A DNA stretch of 64,000 nt from a virus (lineage: Duplodnaviria; Caudoviricetes), in IMG/VR virus record IMGVR_UViG_3300031998_000024, positions 1 through 64,000 of that record; one strand, given 5' to 3'. The notes under the pieces were generated by a model, which ran no database searches, was not told the DNA's origin, and saw only the letters and a program-made list of their open reading frames with translations. How positions within the stretch are numbered: position 1 is the stretch's first letter; each line of letters starts with the position of its first letter. This document shows, in pieces, positions 2,877 through 44,960 of this stretch. A program made the position numbers and the translations under genes.

Positions 2877-3155
2877 ATGACGAATTTTAATTCACATCCG
2901 TATATTAGGGAGGCTTTTAAGCAAGCTGAAATGGTTGATGCACGCGGAGAAATATGTATTTCGTTACATAGGTTGAAAAATGAATTAGAGAAATACAGAA
3001 TACAGCAAAAAGACCTAAGAGATTATTTATTGCTTTATACATCAGCATCTTATGAGCAGTATAATTATATTATTGGAGTGCTTCCAAGACTATATGACAA
3101 GTCGGCAAATATAGATAAATCGGAATTATTTCAAATAACATCTGGATTAAGATAG
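2877..3155 (+). CDS. Hypothetical protein
   Basis: 92-aa ORF preceded by GTTATAGTATAG motif. Confidence 0.6.
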   Translation: MTNFNSHPYIREAFKQAEMVDARGEICISLHRLKNELEKYRIQQKDLRDYLLLYTSASYEQYNYIIGVLPRLYDKSANIDKSELFQITSGLR

Positions 3156-7664: not shown

Positions 7665-10600
7665 ATGGCAAGAATTGAAAACATTGATGAACCTTGGGAA
7701 GGACACGAAGGTATTGAAGTTGAAATATTTGTTAAAGAAGAAATTGTTTCATTGCAAAATGAGGCTATTGGCGATGTAGAACTTGGAGAAATTGACCAAG
7801 AGCGCAGTACTATTCCGTTGAGTTTTTATAAGGTAAGTGATACCGACCATGAAGACCCTACAACCGTTGATATTCCGCTTGCTGGAGAAACTGGAACGGT
7901 TATTGTCCCGAAGGTGACTACACAACTCTACCAAACGCAGCAGGTGGTCAAGTTAGGTGATACTATTCGCGTAAGATGGACTTACGACTGCATCAAGACA
8001 GAAGATGGGGCATCTGAAAGTACCACTGATAAGGCGCAGACATTGATTATTACAGTGAAACTTGGCCAAGCGACCATTTATAGTGAAACAAGATACAATG
8101 TTGCTCCTCAGACCAGCGACATTATTACAATTGGTCCAGATTTGGTTACGGATGCTGGTGTCGTAAATGTTATGGTTGTTGCAACAACATATATTGCAGA
8201 ATTAGACGAAACTAAGACTGCGAGAAGTTCAAAATCAGTTAATGTAACTGCCATGAGGATTACCGCAACCTTTAATCCAGCATCATATTTGAATAGCGGT
8301 GGTTACGGTAGCGGTCAGTCTGTATCAATTCCTTATAGTTACAATGTGCCGCGTGATGGAGCGACATTTAAGATTTGGCTTGATGGCGTGGTTGTGCAGA
8401 CTTATAACATAAGCGGTAGCGGTCGCAGCACCTATTTCTTACCTGTTTCAGAACTTACGGCAGGCAGGCATAATATCCAGATGCTTGCTGAAGGTGTCGG
8501 ATTGGTTAGTAATGCTCTTTCATTTGATTTTCTGAAACAAGGTAGCACAGCAAGTTATCTTGGTATGGCTTTGGATTGCGAAATTGCGGAAGCGCCAACG
8601 CAAGGAAACACGCCGTTGAATTGGTCATACGGTATAGATACTGTCCTATTGTCGGTGAATCAGTTTGAATCTATTGGTCTTGACTTTGGCGTGTGGGTAG
8701 ATGGAGAGTTGACGCATAACGTGGAGATTATTGTTGATGGAATAGTTACGCAAACCATTGAGGCTGATAGGTCATTACAGCATGTTTCGCAGCGTTTCGA
8801 TGTAGCAGACTCGCATACGATGGTTGTTAAGGTTGATAATGTCATATATCGCTCCTTTGATGTGACGGTGGTTGCGGCAGAGAGTGTGACCGAACATGAG
8901 GCTGAGGGATATGTAAACAAACTTACTGCCATAGGACGCAGCAACAGCGAGCCAGAGCCAGAACGCTCAGATTGGGGTGGTATTACTACTTTTAGCGGTG
9001 TAGACTGGAACACTACGGGCTGGATTACTGGTAGCGATGGCGTTCCTGCGCTTGTGCTGAAAAATGGCGCGAAGGCGATAATTGATATTAAGCCGTTCAT
9101 ATTAGACCAATCCGCTGGCGATTACTCCATTAATAGAGACGGTATGACAATTCAGTTTGAACTTATGCTGTCGCAAGTGACTGAGCGTGGAGCAATAATA
9201 GTTGAGTGTCTAAACGATAATAGCGGCCAAGGTTATCCGATGGGCTTGAAACTAACCACAGCAGAAGCGGCATTACTGGTAGGAGGTTATGAGGAAATCA
9301 AGACCGCCGACAAGATGACTAATGATAACGGTAACTATATCAGTTTTACAGAGGCTCAGGTTAGCGTTGGTGATTCAGTTGTTGGATTTTATGAGCGTAT
9401 TACTGAACACGTTTATGTTATGACTACTGACACAACAGCTTTGAGTGGAAAGACTTATTATGAAGCGGTTATTGAAAGTGATGAAGAAGATGCTGCCGAC
9501 CTTTATATTGTGAGGGCTTCTGGTGTATCAGCCAATATTGCAACAGATATATGGATTGATATTTCATATGTAGTCACGCCTATACAGAGTGATGGTTATG
9601 GTTTGACGATGCTCTATATTAATGGTGTTTTGAGTCGTGCAAGTCGTTACAATGCGTCACTTATTCAGAGTATGCCTCAACCTATTGTGTTTGATAGTGA
9701 TAATGCGTACATCAGACTGCGCGGGTTACGATATTACCGCCGTGCTTTGATTGCTGATGATGTACTTGGTAATTGGATTATTGACCGTCCTACTGGTATT
9801 GATATTCAGGACATGCATATTAAGAATGCTGTTGGTGATTCGTCTGGTACACTTGATATTGATGGTAATATTGCTATTGATAAAGAAGCGTTGGTTTCAA
9901 AGGGAAGGGGTGTGCTGACTGTTATCCGCAGCGGTGATAGCGGTGATGGTCTTACCGACCTTTTCAATTGCGTTGACAAAAAACAAAACTTCAAGGCAGA
10001 CCTTGTAAGATGGGAGCCGCCTTTGGATGATAATGGAAACCCAATAGGACAAGGGTTTGAAGCGAGGAATATCCGCATGAGGATTCAGGGAACATCGTCT
10101 GTTAAATATCCGTATAAAAACCTTCGTTTCTATCTTACTACAGCGCAGGACGGCACCCGTTCATTGGTTATTGGTGGTATAGATGTGACAGATACAGCAT
10201 CTGGTTATCCTTTACGCGGTGTTGCCAACTCCATCGAACAAGCTGTGCTTTGTGCTAAGACTGATTTTGTTGATTCGTCTTTGGCGGGCAACACAGGAGG
10301 TGCTCATCTGTTCCATAACACTATGATGGAATTAGGTTTGCTTACACCGCCGCAAGATTATGATAGCCGTGTTCGTCAAGCCATTGATGGTATTCCTTGC
10401 GATATTTTCTCTGGAACTGACGAGGCTGGAACACTTACTTATTGCGGTCAGTTCGTGCTGAACAATGAAAAGTCGAAATCGGGTAAGATTTTTGGTATGG
10501 AAGGTATTAGCGGTTTCACACCAGATTGTGCTATTGCGCTTGAAACTTTGAATAATTCTTCACCTATGACCTTGTTCCACCCTGCTGGTAGTGCAGACAG

Positions 10601-13600
10601 CCAAAATCTGGCTGACCAACTTGCCGCTGAATTCGATAACGGTATGGAGTTCAATTTTCCTGAAGATGCAAAATGGGATAATGTCGATGAGGGGCAATGG
10701 GATGATGAGAAACAGAAGTGGGCTGTTAAGCCTGTGCCTGGCGCAAGAGCCGCAATCAAACGCTGGATGGGTTGGATTTACGATTGTATGATACAAACCG
10801 CAGGTGTGCAGAATGAAACTATGACCATCGCCAATCCTGACTACGGCACTTCGGCAGGATGGAGTGATGAGAGTAAGGCTAAGTGGATTTGTACTAAGTT
10901 TAAGACAGAAGCGGTTCAATATTTCAATGTAAGTCATTTGCTGACTTATTATTTGATTATTGATTATTTGGCAGGTAAAGACCAATTAGTGAAAAATATT
11001 CTTTGGCGTACTTGGGATGGCTTGAAATGGTATAGTACCTTCTATGATGGCGACACATGGGAGGCTATCCGTAATGATGCTTTCATTGTCTATCTTTACA
11101 ACATTACTCGTGACAGTTATGACGCTGAACGCTCTAAGTATGCCTTTGAGGGTCATGCATCATGGTTATGGTGTTTAGTGCTTGCTAACTTTGAAACAGA
11201 ATTGAGGCAATGTGCAGCATCATTGCGCAACCAACTGACCAACCAATATATGCTCAACGAGTTTGTCGGAACAATGATTAGTAACTGGAGTGAGCGTCAG
11301 TACAACAAGAGCGGCAAATTGAAGTACATAGACACTATTAACACGATGAACTATGTCTATACGCTAACTGGTAGCCGTGAGGCACATATAAGGGCATTCC
11401 TTACTAATAGGGCTAAACTACTTGACGCAAGGTATTCAGTTGGTGGTTATAATGGCGATGTTGTTACGCTTACCGTTGTAAGGGCTTCTACCGACACACC
11501 TTCATCATTGGAACTGACCAGTGGCGACCTTTACTATTTCGGCTATAAACTGAATGGAATTTGGTTGCAAGGGCCAACGCAAGTAAAGGATGGAGAAACG
11601 CTAACACTCAACTTCACACAAACCCTTTCCACTAATGACCCGTTAATGATTGGTGGTGCAAGTTGTATTAAGGAAATCGACTTTACTGAAATGGGAAGCC
11701 AGTTGAATGGTAATGTTGGGCTTTCACTTTGCGCAATGTTGGAAAAGATAGTGATGCCCGCAACAAATGGCGCGGCAAACGCACCGCTTATTCTTGGTAA
11801 CATTTCAAAATTGCAATATGTTGATATTACGGGTCAGACCGCTGTCAATACGGGCGTGGCTGGCGTTCTTGACCTATCAAATCAAAGTCGTCTTGGGGTG
11901 CTGAAAGCGCAAGGTACGGGTTTGACCTCCGTGTTGATTCCTGACGGCGCACCTCTAACTACGCTTGAACTTCCATCAACGCTGACCATGTTGAGACTGC
12001 GCTACCTAAACAAACTGACAATGGACGGACTGACGCTTGAAAACGCTAATGCCTTTACTGCGCTCAACTACGCTGATTGTCCTAATTTGGATTGGAAAGA
12101 TATTCTAACGCAATGCCAAAACATTCGCACTATCCGTGTAGAAGGTGTGAGCGGCAGGGTGCGCAGTGAGTACCTCCGCCAGTTTATGACGGGATGGAAC
12201 GGTATTGATGCGCAAGGTAACACACAAACCTATCCAGCCCTTATTGGTACGGTGATATTGATTGACACGCCAAACGACTATCAAGACATCCGTACATTCT
12301 TTGAGAATTGCGGTTTGACGGTTTTGGAGAGCCAATTCACGGAATATTGGTTTGACGACACGGTAAGCGACCCTGCTAACATCACCAATGAGGACAACAA
12401 GACTGGGTATGCTTATGCCGTGACTGGAACAACAGGGCATCCTAACGGCTACTATCCTTCTGGCCACGTTAGCAAGATTCGCGACAAGTGCCAGATTGTT
12501 TCAGGTTTGGTGAATCCATCGACACACAAGATGCGCTGCGAGAAAATCTCAAAGACCAATCTTAACCAAAAGGCTGATGGTACACAGTTTGACCCGTCAG
12601 ATAGCGGAAATGATGGCTATGATGTGTTTCTTTATGTACCAAAGTATTGGTATAAGGGTGTGAATAATTTCAAGGTTGGCAGAAAACACTTGTTTTTGTC
12701 TGCAAACACAGAGTGTCCGAATAGTACGGCATCTTCTGTAAATCGTACAGCCATCGCCACGCTGCTCTTTGCTGCTGACCATGCTGTTGATAATAGTGCT
12801 ATTGCTGTTGGTGATACGCTTAATGAAAACAACTTACTTTCGTTACAAGGTTATTCTGTTTATCGGTTTAACGTGGAGGGAATGAAACAAGTGCGTTTCC
12901 CATCCGTAAAAAGTAATTATTATTCACACGCATTTACTGATGGAGATAATAAGGCGATTGCTGTTACCAACCTTGTAGTGCCGATTGGATACAACGCCGC
13001 TGGAACGACCGTGCTTTCACCAGCCGATTTTGACAATACTATTGGTGATTACGACATTCGTGAAGTGCCAAGCGGAGCAAAATGGCTTTACTTTACAGCC
13101 ATGAGTAGTATTGACCAAAATTTAGAGGTTATTGCCGCTGATACTCTTGAACTGGAGGCTATGGAGCCTGATTGGGTGGAGCATAAGAGTGAACTTATAG
13201 GTATTTATCAAGGTTTTGCCACTGGTGTTACTACTGGCGGTACAGCCACAAGTGGACTTCGCTCTATTAGCGGTAAGACGGTGTCGAGAGGTAATAATTC
13301 TCAAGTCACTAACACAGGTTGGACATATGACACGAATGGTAATCCTACTAATTTGCCATCGTCAAGTCTTAACGGTACGGCGCAAGATTTCTTTAACCTT
13401 GCTCTTTATAGGAATATTCAGACTGGGGTTTTGGAAGGACAGTACACTACGGTGCGTTATGAGACATCGAAGGACATGGCTAATCTGATAATGGCTTGGT
13501 TTGGTACAAGGGATGTGGAGACTATTGTAGGTAGGGGTTCATCGGTTGGTGAAACTACTGGTGTGGGAAATGCTATTGCTTTTGGCGATTCTGCTTTTTA

Positions 13601-14090
13601 TGCCCAAAATCAGCATAACAAGATGTGGGGCTTAGAGTGTTGGACGGCATCAACATACGAATGGAGTGATTGCGCTTGCTTTAATGCTCCAAGTTTCGCT
13701 CGGTTCAAGAAAGACAAGCGGGTTGCTACATCATCGTATGTTGTTGATTACATTTGGAATATTCTTCAACAAGATGGCAACGAGCGTAGGGTTAAGGCTG
13801 CCATAGACCAACAAGCATCTAACATAGCAAGAGTGCGTTTTGGTCGGTATTGCGATATTGTATGTTCAGCATATGCGGGTGATACGGTCTATACCACTTG
13901 CTATGCAGCCTATCAGAGTGCGAATCAAAATACTGGTGGCGTCGTTGGGCGGTCGGACAGCCGCGCGAATGCGAACGCAGGGGTGGCGTCTGTGGATACG
14001 AATGCCGCCTCCTCGCTTTCGCACCCGAATCGCGGTGCGCGGCTTTGCTTCTTCGGAAAAATCGAAAACGAAGAAGAGTTGCTCGAATGA
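7665..14090 (+). CDS. DGR target: large receptor-binding/tail fibre protein (beta domains, LamG-like, CotH-kinase-like, LRR-like, C-terminal CLec fold with VR)
   Basis: 2141 aa; DQLVKN...FYDGD CotH-like motif; LRR-like LxxLxL tract; C-terminal VVGRS...GARLCF encoded by the VR. Confidence 0.85.
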   Translation: MARIENIDEPWEGHEGIEVEIFVKEEIVSLQNEAIGDVELGEIDQERSTIPLSFYKVSDTDHEDPTTVDIPLAGETGTVIVPKVTTQLYQTQQVVKLGDTIRVRWTYDCIKTEDGASESTTDKAQTLIITVKLGQATIYSETRYNVAPQTSDIITIGPDLVTDAGVVNVMVVATTYIAELDETKTARSSKSVNVTAMRITATFNPASYLNSGGYGSGQSVSIPYSYNVPRDGATFKIWLDGVVVQTYNISGSGRSTYFLPVSELTAGRHNIQMLAEGVGLVSNALSFDFLKQGSTASYLGMALDCEIAEAPTQGNTPLNWSYGIDTVLLSVNQFESIGLDFGVWVDGELTHNVEIIVDGIVTQTIEADRSLQHVSQRFDVADSHTMVVKVDNVIYRSFDVTVVAAESVTEHEAEGYVNKLTAIGRSNSEPEPERSDWGGITTFSGVDWNTTGWITGSDGVPALVLKNGAKAIIDIKPFILDQSAGDYSINRDGMTIQFELMLSQVTERGAIIVECLNDNSGQGYPMGLKLTTAEAALLVGGYEEIKTADKMTNDNGNYISFTEAQVSVGDSVVGFYERITEHVYVMTTDTTALSGKTYYEAVIESDEEDAADLYIVRASGVSANIATDIWIDISYVVTPIQSDGYGLTMLYINGVLSRASRYNASLIQSMPQPIVFDSDNAYIRLRGLRYYRRALIADDVLGNWIIDRPTGIDIQDMHIKNAVGDSSGTLDIDGNIAIDKEALVSKGRGVLTVIRSGDSGDGLTDLFNCVDKKQNFKADLVRWEPPLDDNGNPIGQGFEARNIRMRIQGTSSVKYPYKNLRFYLTTAQDGTRSLVIGGIDVTDTASGYPLRGVANSIEQAVLCAKTDFVDSSLAGNTGGAHLFHNTMMELGLLTPPQDYDSRVRQAIDGIPCDIFSGTDEAGTLTYCGQFVLNNEKSKSGKIFGMEGISGFTPDCAIALETLNNSSPMTLFHPAGSADSQNLADQLAAEFDNGMEFNFPEDAKWDNVDEGQWDDEKQKWAVKPVPGARAAIKRWMGWIYDCMIQTAGVQNETMTIANPDYGTSAGWSDESKAKWICTKFKTEAVQYFNVSHLLTYYLIIDYLAGKDQLVKNILWRTWDGLKWYSTFYDGDTWEAIRNDAFIVYLYNITRDSYDAERSKYAFEGHASWLWCLVLANFETELRQCAASLRNQLTNQYMLNEFVGTMISNWSERQYNKSGKLKYIDTINTMNYVYTLTGSREAHIRAFLTNRAKLLDARYSVGGYNGDVVTLTVVRASTDTPSSLELTSGDLYYFGYKLNGIWLQGPTQVKDGETLTLNFTQTLSTNDPLMIGGASCIKEIDFTEMGSQLNGNVGLSLCAMLEKIVMPATNGAANAPLILGNISKLQYVDITGQTAVNTGVAGVLDLSNQSRLGVLKAQGTGLTSVLIPDGAPLTTLELPSTLTMLRLRYLNKLTMDGLTLENANAFTALNYADCPNLDWKDILTQCQNIRTIRVEGVSGRVRSEYLRQFMTGWNGIDAQGNTQTYPALIGTVILIDTPNDYQDIRTFFENCGLTVLESQFTEYWFDDTVSDPANITNEDNKTGYAYAVTGTTGHPNGYYPSGHVSKIRDKCQIVSGLVNPSTHKMRCEKISKTNLNQKADGTQFDPSDSGNDGYDVFLYVPKYWYKGVNNFKVGRKHLFLSANTECPNSTASSVNRTAIATLLFAADHAVDNSAIAVGDTLNENNLLSLQGYSVYRFNVEGMKQVRFPSVKSNYYSHAFTDGDNKAIAVTNLVVPIGYNAAGTTVLSPADFDNTIGDYDIREVPSGAKWLYFTAMSSIDQNLEVIAADTLELEAMEPDWVEHKSELIGIYQGFATGVTTGGTATSGLRSISGKTVSRGNNSQVTNTGWTYDTNGNPTNLPSSSLNGTAQDFFNLALYRNIQTGVLEGQYTTVRYETSKDMANLIMAWFGTRDVETIVGRGSSVGETTGVGNAIAFGDSAFYAQNQHNKMWGLECWTASTYEWSDCACFNAPSFARFKKDKRVATSSYVVDYIWNILQQDGNERRVKAAIDQQASNIARVRFGRYCDIVCSAYAGDTVYTTCYAAYQSANQNTGGVVGRSDSRANANAGVASVDTNAASSLSHPNRGARLCFFGKIENEEELLE
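13930..14049 (+). repeat. DGR variable repeat (VR)
   Basis: Ungapped 120-nt alignment to 14157-14276; 16 of 19 mismatches are at TR adenines. Confidence 0.97.
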
Positions 14091-14156: not shown

Positions 14157-14276
14157 ATACTGGTCGCGTCATTGGGCGGTCGAACAACAACGCGAATGCG
14201 AACGCAGGAGTAGCGTATGCGAATACGAATAACGCCTCCTCGATTTCGAACACGAACAACGGTGCGCGGCTTTGCT
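14157..14276 (+). repeat. DGR template repeat (TR)
   Basis: Non-coding copy of the VR with 11 AAC/AAT codons in the VR frame, upstream of the RT. Confidence 0.97.
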
Positions 14277-14456
14277 AAATCGAAAATCGCTGCTACGCCA
14301 ACTCCTACGGGTTGGGTAAGGGTGACGGCGAGGGGGATGAGCCTCTGCAAAAGCGTTATACGGAAAGCAGAAACATAAAAGACGCAGCCTAAAAGGGTCA
14401 AGTAGTGCAAGCGAAAGCGCCAAGGCTGCAAGTACGAAGAACAAAGGAATAAGGAA
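14277..14456 (+). ncRNA. Probable DGR RNA spacer (Sp) downstream of the TR
   Basis: GC-rich, hairpin-prone non-coding stretch between TR and RT start; position typical of the DGR priming spacer. Confidence 0.5.
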
Positions 14457-15409
14457 ATGCCAAAAAGACACGGCAACATGATAGTAAAGATAGTGGAACG
14501 CGACAATATGGAACGCGCTTTCAACGAAGTGCTTCGCAATCTTGAAGAGCCACGCAAAAGCAAGATGCATAGCAAAAGGGAGATTGTGTTGTCATATCTT
14601 AAAAAAGAGATAGAGGCTGGAACATTTCGTTTGAGATGCTATCGAGAAATGAAGGTGCGCGAGGGTGAGAAGGTGCGTAATGTGTCAAGTCCATGTGTTG
14701 TTGACCGTATCGGATGCAATGCTATTATGCGTGTTGTTGAGGAGAAAGTTTATCCAAGCGTGATATACACATCGGCAGCAAGCATACCAGGCAGGGGAAT
14801 GCACCGATTGTTCGCTAAGATGAGGTGTGATATAGAAAAAGACCGCGAAGGTACACTCTACTATTACAAATGCGATATGCGCAAGTTCTATGAAAGCATT
14901 GACCAAGAAATTTGTGGAGTATTGTTTGCCGCAAGGTGAAAGACCCTATTTTGCTTCCTATGCTTCACAACTTCATTACAATGCTTCCGAAGGGTATTTC
15001 CATAGGATTGCGTTCGTCACAATGCTACGGCAATCTTTATTTGAGCCAGATTGACCATCTGCTAAAAGACGGTTTGGGCATAAAACACTATTACCGCTAT
15101 TGCGACGACATCGTTATATTCGCAGCTACTAAAAAGGAATTATGGATGCTTCGCGACATCATGCACAAAGAAGCATCAAAACTCCGACTTGAAATCAAGC
15201 CTAATGAGGTGATAAAGCCATTATCTTCAGGCATAGATTTTCTTGGCTATGTTTATGACGGTAAGAAGGCAAGACTGCGCAAGCGTATTAAGCAAAATGC
15301 CGCACGGAGGCTTCATAAACTAAAAAGCCGCAGACGCAGAATGGAAGTGGTTGGTAGTTTCAAAGGCATGGCGAAATGGGGAAATTGCAAAATTTATACA
15401 AGACATTAA
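14457..15409 (+). pseudogene. DGR reverse transcriptase, split by a -1 frame break at about 14910
   Basis: 14457..14939 has the RT N-half (KCDMRKFYESID); 14912..15409 has GISIGLRSSQ, YYRYCDD, GIDFLGY; adding one base gives SIDQEILWSIVCRKVKDPILL. Confidence 0.85.
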
Positions 15410-15420
15410 CAGGGATAGAA

Positions 15421-15765
15421 ATGGAATCATTTAACGAAATCATTAAAAAGAAACAGAAGCAAGGAATTGGTTTCTTGGGAGCCGATGGAAAACGAATTAT
15501 GAAGGGCACGTTAGAAAACTTGCGTACTTTGGCAAACACAAAGGTAACGATACTTGATTTTGAGCCTGATGTGCCTACAAAGAATGGCCCACGCTATGTA
15601 GTGCAGTTCAAGAAGGCTGATGTCTCAATAGGCAAGTATTTTACAAACGACTCAGAACAGAAATTCTGGCTTGAAGAACTCAGGAAGGATAAAAGCCTGC
15701 CTTTTGAATGCACTATCTCACCGCAGTTTTTCGGTCAAGGAAAAGTAAGATATATGTTCACTTAA
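15421..15765 (+). CDS. RT-associated protein, possibly the C-terminal domain of the RT
   Basis: Its frame is open from 15376 and would join the RT by a -1 shift at 15390-15395 (KWGNCKNLYKTLTGIEM). Confidence 0.6.
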   Translation: MESFNEIIKKKQKQGIGFLGADGKRIMKGTLENLRTLANTKVTILDFEPDVPTKNGPRYVVQFKKADVSIGKYFTNDSEQKFWLEELRKDKSLPFECTISPQFFGQGKVRYMFT

Positions 15766-18159: not shown

Positions 18160-18490
18160 TATCAGTTATAGTCTATTAAAATTCATAAATTATGGTTACA
18201 CTTGAAGAAGTTTTCAGAAAGTCACAAGACAATCTTACAAAGTCATTCGATGCAGAGAAATTCTCATCAGACATCGAAAACCTATCAAAGGCAGAAACAG
18301 AGTGGCTTTTAGGACAAATTCAAGCCGAAATCCTCAAAGGCGGCGATTACAACACGCTCACCGAAATGCGCGACATCGCATTAGGTAATATAGAGAAAGC
18401 AAGAAGCGGAGTTTACGCAGACACCTCAGAAAATCGTAAGTTAGGCAGAGTAGGTCAGCAGTATGGCGGCAAAAGTAGTCGTGGAGGTAA
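18145..18490 (+). repeat. Dispersed ~340-bp repeat, copy 1 (copy 2 at 44616-44960)
   Basis: Near-identical from gaaacaaaagaataatatcagttatagtc through the leader coding region. Confidence 0.92.
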
Positions 18491-18755
18491 GCAAACAGAA
18501 GGTTTGGGGTCTAATTCTGTGAAGAAAATTGCCAATGCTATGTATCAAAATAGCAAATTTGCATCAAGAATAGAATCATTATTATCAGAGCATCTTGGTG
18601 ATGAATTGAAAAAGAAATACGGCACTGATGATTTTGCTGATATTTTTGATAAAGTCGGTGAAGATAATTATGGTAAAGTTGTAATGAATCTAATTCGTAA
18701 ATTACCTGTTGACGAAGTTCAAAACGCTTACAATTCTTATTTTCAGAAGAAATAA
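18192..18755 (+). CDS. Putative internal head protein, tag family member 3
   Basis: FRKS, LTKS, LSKA, ILKG, IEKA then RSGVYADTSENRKLGRVGQQYGG (18396-18470). Confidence 0.7.
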   Translation: MVTLEEVFRKSQDNLTKSFDAEKFSSDIENLSKAETEWLLGQIQAEILKGGDYNTLTEMRDIALGNIEKARSGVYADTSENRKLGRVGQQYGGKSSRGGKQTEGLGSNSVKKIANAMYQNSKFASRIESLLSEHLGDELKKKYGTDDFADIFDKVGEDNYGKVVMNLIRKLPVDEVQNAYNSYFQKK

Positions 18756-19104
18756 CGTAATTACTAATTTTGTAAGTATAAAAGATTTGAATAGAGATTT
18801 TGAAAATCTTGATTGGGATAAGGCAAGAGATATTATTGACGGTAATGTTGATAGTTATAAAGATGTTGAAAATGCTTCTGATAAAGATAAAAGGTTGTTG
18901 AAGTTTATGGAAGATGTTGGTTTTTCATGGGGTGATGCAAATGAATATGATAAAAATCCTGAGAAATATAGGGATAATGCAGAAAGAAAACATATTGCTT
19001 GGTTCCATGTTAATGGCGGTAGTGAAACTTGTATAATAGAAGCGCCAATGAAGAAAGTAAATGCTGTTCTTGATAAAATAGTAAGAGGGGAATGGACTTA
19101 TTAA
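18709..19104 (+). CDS. Hypothetical protein, possibly a frameshifted continuation of 18192..18755
   Basis: Protein-like open frame, but only a TTG start inside the upstream gene. Confidence 0.45.
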   Translation: MTKFKTLTILIFRRNNVITNFVSIKDLNRDFENLDWDKARDIIDGNVDSYKDVENASDKDKRLLKFMEDVGFSWGDANEYDKNPEKYRDNAERKHIAWFHVNGGSETCIIEAPMKKVNAVLDKIVRGEWTY

Positions 19105-20212: not shown

Positions 20213-21775
20213 ATGGCAAGGAATAATTTTGAATTTTGGTGTCCGTTAGATAGCGTCAACAAAGCAATAGACGAAAAGACTGGTGAAGAGATAATGTTGC
20301 TTGGCGGAATTGCTTCAACAGCAGATGAGGATTCTGATGGAGAGTTTCTTGACCCCAAGGGATTTGATATCAAACCTTTGTTGAAAAGCGGTTTAGTGAA
20401 CTGGCATCACCAGGCAAAGACAAATCCTGGTACAATCGTTGGTGAGCCTACAAAGGCAGAAATAAGAAAAGAAGGGTTGTATATTGAAACGCAACTATAT
20501 CCTCATAGTCAGGTTGCTTGCGATATTTGGGAGTTAGCAAAAACGCTTGCTTCAGATTCAAAAACACGCAGACTTGGATATTCAATTGAAGGTAGAGTTG
20601 TGAAGCGTAAGAGTGAAGACCCGACAAACCCAGATTACAAAAAGATTGTTCAAGCTGTAATTACTGGAGTTGCTATTACTCATCAGCCGAAAAACCCTAA
20701 AACATTCGCAAATATAATAAAGGGTGAAATTGATGAGATGGAAGATGAAGAGGTTGAAGAGATAAAAGAGAAGCAAGAAAATGCTGAAACTGAGGAGGCG
20801 ATTGATACGGAAAATGCCGCTGCTTTGAAAAAAGAAGATGTTGATGATGACTTAAAAGTTACGACTTTTGGAAAATCAGAGGTGTTCGATAAAATTTTTC
20901 AAGACATACCAGGTATAAGTATAGCAAAAGCAAACCAAGTTTATCATTTAATTGAAAAAATTGTAGATATGAAGAAAGAAAATTCAGAGATTACTCAGGA
21001 TGATATCAACAAGGCATATGAGGCTTTGGGTCTTGAAATGCCCGCTATTGATATTGTAAAGGCTGGAGAATCGGATGAAACCGATGAAAGCAAGGAAACT
21101 GAGGAAACAGAAGAAACTGAAGAGAAACCTTCCAAGACCGAAAAGAAATCTGACGAAGAAACTGAGGAAACAGAAGAAACCGATGATGGCGAGGTTTTTG
21201 AAAAGGTTGATGATGAAGAGGAGGATGAAGAGGAAGGTAAAAAGGTCAAAAAGGCTAATCAAAATTCAATCGGTTTGAAGTTTGAGCGCATTGAAAAGGC
21301 AATTGCCGCTTCTCACAATTCTCAGTCTAAGTATGTAAAGGCACTTGGAGTTATGTTCAAGGCTCAGAGCATTCAGTTGGAAAAGGCTCAGCAATCCCTT
21401 AATCTTGCTATTGAAACGATTAACAGTCAAAGCGATATTATTAAGGGGTATGAGGATAAACTCAACTCTTTGAGCGAACAGATTACCGAAATTGGTAATG
21501 GCGTGCCTGCTCCTAAGTCGGTAAGAAATGCCCGTCCAGTTGAGCGTGCCTTTGGTAAGGCTCAGGAAAACGACTTTGAAAAGGGCGGTAATGAAAACCG
21601 AGTAAGCATCAATAATCGTTCTGCTATTTCGGAAATTCTTGACCAAGCAACTTTTGCTAAGGGATTCGATGAGGAATTTTCTAAGGCTTGCACTTCATTT
21701 GAAGCAGGTGCTCCTTTGTCGCAGAATGTAATCAACAGAATAAAGAACGAATTTGGAATAGAAATCGTCAAATAA
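20213..21775 (+). CDS. Prohead protease fused to acidic/coiled-coil scaffold
   Basis: GIASTADEDSDGE, NWHH, LGYSIEG, VAITHQPKNP motifs; directly upstream of the capsid gene. Confidence 0.85.
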   Translation: MARNNFEFWCPLDSVNKAIDEKTGEEIMLLGGIASTADEDSDGEFLDPKGFDIKPLLKSGLVNWHHQAKTNPGTIVGEPTKAEIRKEGLYIETQLYPHSQVACDIWELAKTLASDSKTRRLGYSIEGRVVKRKSEDPTNPDYKKIVQAVITGVAITHQPKNPKTFANIIKGEIDEMEDEEVEEIKEKQENAETEEAIDTENAAALKKEDVDDDLKVTTFGKSEVFDKIFQDIPGISIAKANQVYHLIEKIVDMKKENSEITQDDINKAYEALGLEMPAIDIVKAGESDETDESKETEETEETEEKPSKTEKKSDEETEETEETDDGEVFEKVDDEEEDEEEGKKVKKANQNSIGLKFERIEKAIAASHNSQSKYVKALGVMFKAQSIQLEKAQQSLNLAIETINSQSDIIKGYEDKLNSLSEQITEIGNGVPAPKSVRNARPVERAFGKAQENDFEKGGNENRVSINNRSAISEILDQATFAKGFDEEFSKACTSFEAGAPLSQNVINRIKNEFGIEIVK

Positions 21776-44630: not shown

Positions 44631-44960
44631 TATCAGTTATAGTCTATTAAAATTCAAAAAATTATGGTTACACTTGAAGAAGTTTTCAGAAAGTCACAAG
44701 ACAATCTTACAAAGTCATTCGATGCAGAGAAATTCTCATCAGACATCGAAAATCTATCAAAGGCAGAAACAGAGCAATTGTTAGGTCAAATCCAAGCCGA
44801 AATCCTCAAAGGCGGCGATTACAACACGCTCACCGAAATGCGCAACATCGCATTAGGTAATATAGAGAAAGCAAGAAGCGGAGTTTATGCCGATACTCCA
44901 GAGAATCGCAAACTTGGTCGCGTAGGTCAACAGTATGGCGGCAAGGGCAGTCGCGGAGGT
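44616..44960 (+). repeat. Dispersed ~340-bp repeat, copy 2
   Basis: Matches 18145-18490. Confidence 0.92.

Follow-up and report, generated by a model that had tools for sequence, protein, structure and literature searches.

Two single-nucleotide deletions at AAATTT sites have probably inactivated the reverse transcriptase of a phage DGR, one of them at a natural domain boundary

The prototype DGR, that of Bordetella phage BPP-1, comprises bRT, Avd, a template region (TR) and the variable region (VR) of mtd. An active DGR requires an intact reverse transcriptase (RT) ORF. DGRs whose RT was inactivated by a frameshift, a nonsense mutation or an IS insertion, with VR and TR left intact, were described in the DiGReF survey (Schillinger et al. 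2012, PMC3521204). The frameshifted RT of Bacteroides sp. 9_1_42FAA is one example (PMC3521204), and a DGR with a broken RT is thus an already known kind of event. Programmed -1 frameshifting at X XXY YYZ heptamers operates in dnaX, IS elements and the phage tail chaperone G/GT (PMC5009743).

We analyzed a window of 64,000 nt, which is the first 64 kb of a 123,871-nt IMG/VR phage record that has direct terminal repeats and is rated complete. Almost all genes lie on the plus strand. The DGR cassette of the window has the following parts.

7665..14090, plus strand: DGR target gene, an ORF of 2141 aa with the VR at its 3′ end
13930..14059, plus strand: variable region (VR), a 130-nt repeat of the TR with 23 mismatches
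14157..14286, plus strand: template region (TR), paired with the VR
14457..14939, plus strand: RT piece 1, 160 aa, N-terminus through motif A (YYYKCDMRKFYESIDQEI), then eight off-frame residues and TGA
14908..14913, plus strand: break 1, AAATTT, one base short compared with all relatives
14912..15409, plus strand: RT piece 2, up to 165 aa, with motif B (ISIGLRSSQ), motif C (YRYCDD) and thumb
15389..15395, plus strand: break 2, AAAATTT, one base short, in the linker between the RT and the C-terminal module
15421..15765, plus strand: C-terminal module, 114 aa from Met, OB-like, matching phrog_19665

Like BPP-1, this locus has the SQ signature of RT motif 4 ([ILV]GxxxSQ, here ISIGLRSSQ), a TR beside the RT, a VR at the 3′ end of a tail-fibre-like target and adenine-specific differences. 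The VR/TR pair differs almost only at adenines: 20 of its 23 mismatches fall at TR adenines and the other three at TR cytosines. The VR ends 31 nt before the target stop codon, the TR has this single VR partner genome-wide, and the RT gene follows immediately downstream of the TR. The YxDD motif (YRYCDD) lies in piece 2 together with motif 4, and the RT is 45-68% identical to full-length RTs that adjoin TR/VR pairs. Unlike BPP-1, the phage carries no avd between VR and TR; an OB-like C-terminal module is present instead, and the RT is not intact. The ORF list holds no ORF between VR and TR and none that is avd-like, and Pfam and PHROGs searches of the neighbouring ORFs gave no Avd match. Instead of one translatable RT ORF, we find a gene spread over three frames.

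The RT gene (14457-15765) consists of three overlapping ORFs (14457-14939, 14912-15409 and 15376-15765), and the starts of the three pieces modulo 3 are 0, 2 and 1. Therefore, each junction is a -1 step. Performing tblastn with the intact 450-aa RT of the relative L002, we matched the window in three frames (residues 1-166, 167-326 and 326-450), with junctions at 14912 and 15388-15391. The first-pass annotation of this DNA had described the RT frame as broken twice, each time by -1 at AAATTT in the same phase, and the positions, the ORF frames and the tblastn matches all agree with that description. AAATTT occurs only twice in the 1309-nt gene, both times at a break and both times in the phase xAA ATT Txx; at break 2 the hexamer occupies 15390-15395, and an extra A before it makes AAAATTT from 15389. 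Adding one base per break gives 1311 nt with no internal stop and a continuous protein of 436 aa, as had also been claimed. Alignment to intact homologues, proposed earlier as a check, points the same way: in a MAFFT alignment with X placed at the breaks, exactly one residue is missing per break, without gaps, and the relatives are single-frame. At the missing residue the relatives have M or L (break 1) and N or H (break 2); the closest of them found in viral_contigs encode the RT in a single uninterrupted ORF, 450 aa long in L002 and 476 aa in L004.

The pieces themselves look healthy. Piece 1 covers positions 95-247 of the phrog_1423 RT profile and piece 2 covers positions 249-428, the latter also giving a Pfam RVT_1 match (E 1.3e-07). 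All RT motifs are intact, the pieces are 58-67% identical to L002, and accelerated change was not seen. We consider it probable that the RT carries two genuine 1-nt deletions and was recently inactivated, with break 2 lying on a natural domain boundary. We infer that the inactivation is recent because the motifs and the three pieces are otherwise intact and the breaks occur in this strain only.

Most simply, each deletion would be the contraction of a short A/T run. Break 1 would have gone from A3T4 to A3T3 at 14908-14913, and break 2 from A5T3 to A4T3 at 15389-15395, each by loss of one presumed base. Near the breaks, the relative P0054 reads ..QDILW.. and ..CRNLYK.., and P0058 reads ..CKNLY... 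The sequences suggest ATT TTG (A3T4) and AAA AAT TTA (A5T3) as the ancestral states, from which both events would be ordinary homopolymer contractions. The chance that both deletions leave AAATTT is about 1e-4 if deletions fall uniformly, and about 0.006, a post hoc value, if they fall on any of the 26 runs of at least four identical bases. The latter coincidence counts against plain decay, which does not predict a shared AAATTT. Tracts of 7-8 nt made up entirely of A/T may simply be more prone to slippage, and we found no mechanism that makes the shared site meaningful.

The breaks would be artifacts if the true genome had an extra base at one or both sites. Sequencing indels were among the alternatives listed earlier; the record was assembled from a metagenome, each site is a junction of short homopolymers, and the data behind the assemblies with the breaks may overlap. 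Against such an error, the three-piece gene with identical proteins is found in five assemblies: the 123,871-nt record, L020 (the JGI contig of sample 3300028914, 100% identical over 4554 nt), Logan SRR9008936, Logan SRR9008937 and the ENA MEGAHIT contig ERZ27257204. They represent at least three pipelines and at least two SRA runs; the five may come from one study, and therefore say little on independence between populations. Performing a scan of ORF junctions and coding scores, we found no other convincing frame break in the 124-kb genome, despite its 114 A6 and 61 T6 runs. This bears out the earlier remark that other frame breaks are few, a single further doubtful junction lying at 18755. 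The 160 further AAATTT sites are unaffected, and two random errors within one 1.3-kb gene of 124 kb would be an event of about 1e-4. Random error is very unlikely because the five assemblies are identical and no other convincing break exists in 124 kb, and we hold an artifact at either site to be very improbable. As judged from the assembled sequences, the breaks are genuine and present in the DNA. A minor intact RT variant in the population is possible.

At the doubtful junction, an ORF at 18694-19104 overlaps the end of 18192-18755 by 62 nt. Its first ATG is at 18907 and otherwise there is just a TTG at 18709; an unusual start or a further frame break may be involved. Three genes (window 18192-18473 and 44664-44945; genome 120937-121209) begin with a module of about 91 aa that is 88-100% identical among them and continue into unrelated C-terminal parts, and the JGI contig L020 jumps from 18376 to 120920 via this repeat.

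Break 1, present in this strain only, is located within the polymerase core, eight codons downstream of the motif A catalytic Asp and ahead of motif B. Its position indicates that it most likely inactivates the RT. Full-length RT would most likely be abolished, and mutagenic homing would therefore have stopped, with the VR frozen. The VR is the same in all five assemblies, and the 2141-aa target is identical in every source. Non-adenine VR/TR differences number zero in 7 of the 11 relatives with a usable pair, three in the window and two in L002. The three in the window are compatible with a degree of drift after homing last took place, but the evidence is weak, given that L002 has two such mismatches with an intact RT. 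A whole-genome search found a single RT and no second one, which rules out a trans-acting RT encoded elsewhere in this genome.

Relatives carry a variety of other RT lesions. L021 has a deletion of about 40 nt starting at the codon of break 1. In L023 (an ENA contig of 48,817 nt), an in-frame TGA (3062-3067) occupies the Cys/Gly position of motif 4 (RSSQ*FGN, motif B) with the remainder in frame; either a nonsense mutation or TGA recoding could account for it. In P0041 and P0030 the frame shifts after SQCYGN, and in P0043 (a Logan contig, 244 aa) an internal deletion removed motifs B-E and joined the N-terminal third to the OB-like module. The search that yielded these last three took short proteins only and was biased to truncated forms; therefore, it says nothing on lesion frequency. 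The picture is one of recurrent, unsystematic RT decay in the family, as in the DiGReF survey. Inactivation, one of the alternatives in the first-pass annotation, is supported: the indels are real, break 1 is in the core and relatives have other RT lesions. The accompanying idea of 'locking in a good VR' is speculation. Like the DiGReF cases, this element has a frameshifted RT and a still recognisable, mostly adenine-specific TR/VR pair, and is read as a recent inactivation. Unlike those cases, it has two 1-nt deletions, both at AAATTT and one in a linker where a split is normal, and it resides in a 124-kb lytic-type phage genome with terminal repeats.

Three related RT genes (L014 2683-2767, L015 757-841 and L016 746-830) contain three in-frame TAG codons each, with an otherwise continuous match, which suggests TAG-recoded phages. 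Searches for nearer relatives of the window came back empty. Megablast of the cassette against GenBank phages gave no match; pattern scans for intact or broken near-relatives (two of viral_contigs and two of metagenome_contigs, one with degenerate third positions) found none, and such blanks say little. The one window protein tried (520 aa, 20213-21775) had no homologue in G001 or G002, the closest RT relatives.

Break 2 has a different setting. It lies in the linker, ..GSFKGMAKWGNCK|NLYKTLTGIEM.., upstream of the Met at 15421, a residue that most aligned relatives have, whether fused or split. Interruptions also occur no more than about 10 codons from break 2 in two other lineages: in L006 a TAA replaces the Lys of ..CK.. 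in the linker, and in L019 a 1-nt deletion falls in ..RTL|TG... The 114-aa module matches phrog_19665, a standalone family of 105 positions. An exhaustive search of the module family gave 62 cluster representatives in two size classes, standalone proteins of about 100-125 aa and proteins of about 410-475 aa with the module at the RT C-terminus. The module is fused to the RT in most close relatives (at 3560-3855 in L002) and standalone in many others. Break 2 is effectively a gene boundary because it falls in the linker, two lineages are split nearby, and the module exists both standalone and fused. This agrees with the earlier suggestion that it might be a normal gene boundary with ATG at 15421. 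The fusion would have become two ORFs, and the module could still be made from that ATG. Break 2 recreates a common architecture and therefore need not be harmful alone.

AlphaFold2 predicts the module to be an OB-like barrel (pLDDT 91). Its resemblance to SSB-type OB folds is weak (PRD1 P12, Z 5.4, rmsd 3.3 over 86 residues; PrgE, E 7e-3), and in the predicted model an SSB-type kinship is a lead, not an assignment. The OB-like module of about 110 aa may be an accessory factor of these avd-less DGRs.

Could the RT work in pieces? Piece 1 and a piece 2 started at a GTG (14936-14938) by stop-start coupling might assemble non-covalently with the separate module into a working DGR enzyme. This GTG overlaps the TGA of piece 1 (14937-14939) as GTGA and is a possible restart for piece 2; the JGI gene caller picked it, beginning piece 2 at the V of VKDPILL. 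The family clearly tolerates the split at break 2, for the linker-split L006 has 14 A-only and no non-A VR/TR mismatches. Break 1, in contrast, cuts inside the palm/fingers core, dropping eight residues and adding eight off-frame ones. No relative is split in an orderly way there, the lesion of L021 being a deletion and not a clean split, and our searches turned up no DGR RT that is naturally in two pieces. We give a functional split RT very little weight against an RT inactivated by break 1.

The first-pass annotation had also offered programmed ribosomal or transcriptional slippage. Here the ribosome or the RNA polymerase would shift by -1 at AA-AUU-U at both sites, yielding some full-length RT, with the consequence that DGR activity is throttled or the indels are partly rescued. 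In its favour, the two breaks have a common hexamer and phase, and both have AUU as the P-site codon and, once shifted, a UUR Leu codon. Apart from the breaks the pieces show no damage, a hairpin (-15.7 kcal/mol) begins directly after break 1, and, like programmed -1 systems, the gene shows a -1 step between overlapping frames of one functional gene. Unlike in those systems, the phase is wrong, a stimulatory structure is lacking, the sites are unconserved and two serial shifts are needed. The incoming frame reads GAA ATT TGT and AAA ATT TAT, not X XXY YYZ, a point on which the earlier annotation was itself right. Reasoning from the sequence, a tRNA-Ile moved from AUU to AAU would have a mismatch at the middle position. 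The hairpin at break 1 lacks a spacer and falls short of significance (z -1.06), folding at break 2 showed no structure (z +0.43 and +1.74), and neither break has a stimulatory structure at a spacing of 5-9 nt.

The comparative and genome-wide counts argue against recoding as well. The A/T tracts and breaks are absent from relatives: in viral_contigs, all 17 related loci stay in one frame throughout the match, and the A/T tract at break 1 is absent in those examined, L002 reading GAC CTG ATG TGG at that position. Same-phase AAATTT sites on the coding strand sit in ORFs that continue in 41 of 43 cases, and the break phase is not avoided in long ORFs (38 observed versus 30.3 ± 5.4 expected from codon shuffles). 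The canonical phase A_AAT_TTN is two-fold depleted in long plus-strand ORFs (19 versus 37.7 ± 5.7, codon shuffles). Two shifts in series would give very little product. A3T3 is much shorter than the known transcriptional-slippage tracts, and transcriptional slippage or a contingency tract would need far longer runs than these 3-4 nt. With the wrong phase, no structure, no conservation and no genome-wide motif effect, the slippage proposal does not hold, and programmed or leaky recoding at these sites is in our judgement highly unlikely.

There is a very slim chance that non-canonical P-site slippage of tRNA-Ile at AA-AUU-U, in this phage-host pair, allows low -1 decoding and a trickle of full-length RT; if true, indels would survive only where leaky decoding persists, a 'savior indel' throttle on a mutagenic retroelement. 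A genome-wide AAATTT decoding rule is ruled out, since 41 of the 43 sites continue and the phase is not avoided. A frameshift-suppressor tRNA is ruled out by a genome with one tRNA-Met and no suppressor-like or unusual tRNA. A slipped-strand contingency locus fails on the short runs (A3T3 and A4T3), the identity of the five assemblies and the absence of the tract in relatives.

Some further features of the genome were noticed along these searches. ARAGORN reported the tRNA-Met and a doubtful permuted tmRNA-like element with the tag GKKVSFDRMVNQRHEARVYACAA (genome 103083-103158 and 103433-103806). The AAA_TTT phase is enriched in long plus-strand ORFs (56 versus 39.2). In the whole genome TTTAAA occurs 8 times and GAATTC 14 times, versus 162 for AAATTT and 125 for AATATT; such strong avoidance of the two palindromes TTTAAA and GAATTC is as expected for restriction-site avoidance.

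For annotation, the broken RT calls for caution: this DGR should not be recorded as an active diversifier or a case of recoding, but as one whose RT is disrupted and whose VR is probably frozen. The assorted RT lesions of the family are in keeping with the view that phage populations often lose DGR activity or can do without it. The fusion of RT and module has been split repeatedly, in the same linker and in independent lineages, and this family of phage DGR RTs carries a separable OB-like C-terminal module instead of an avd gene.
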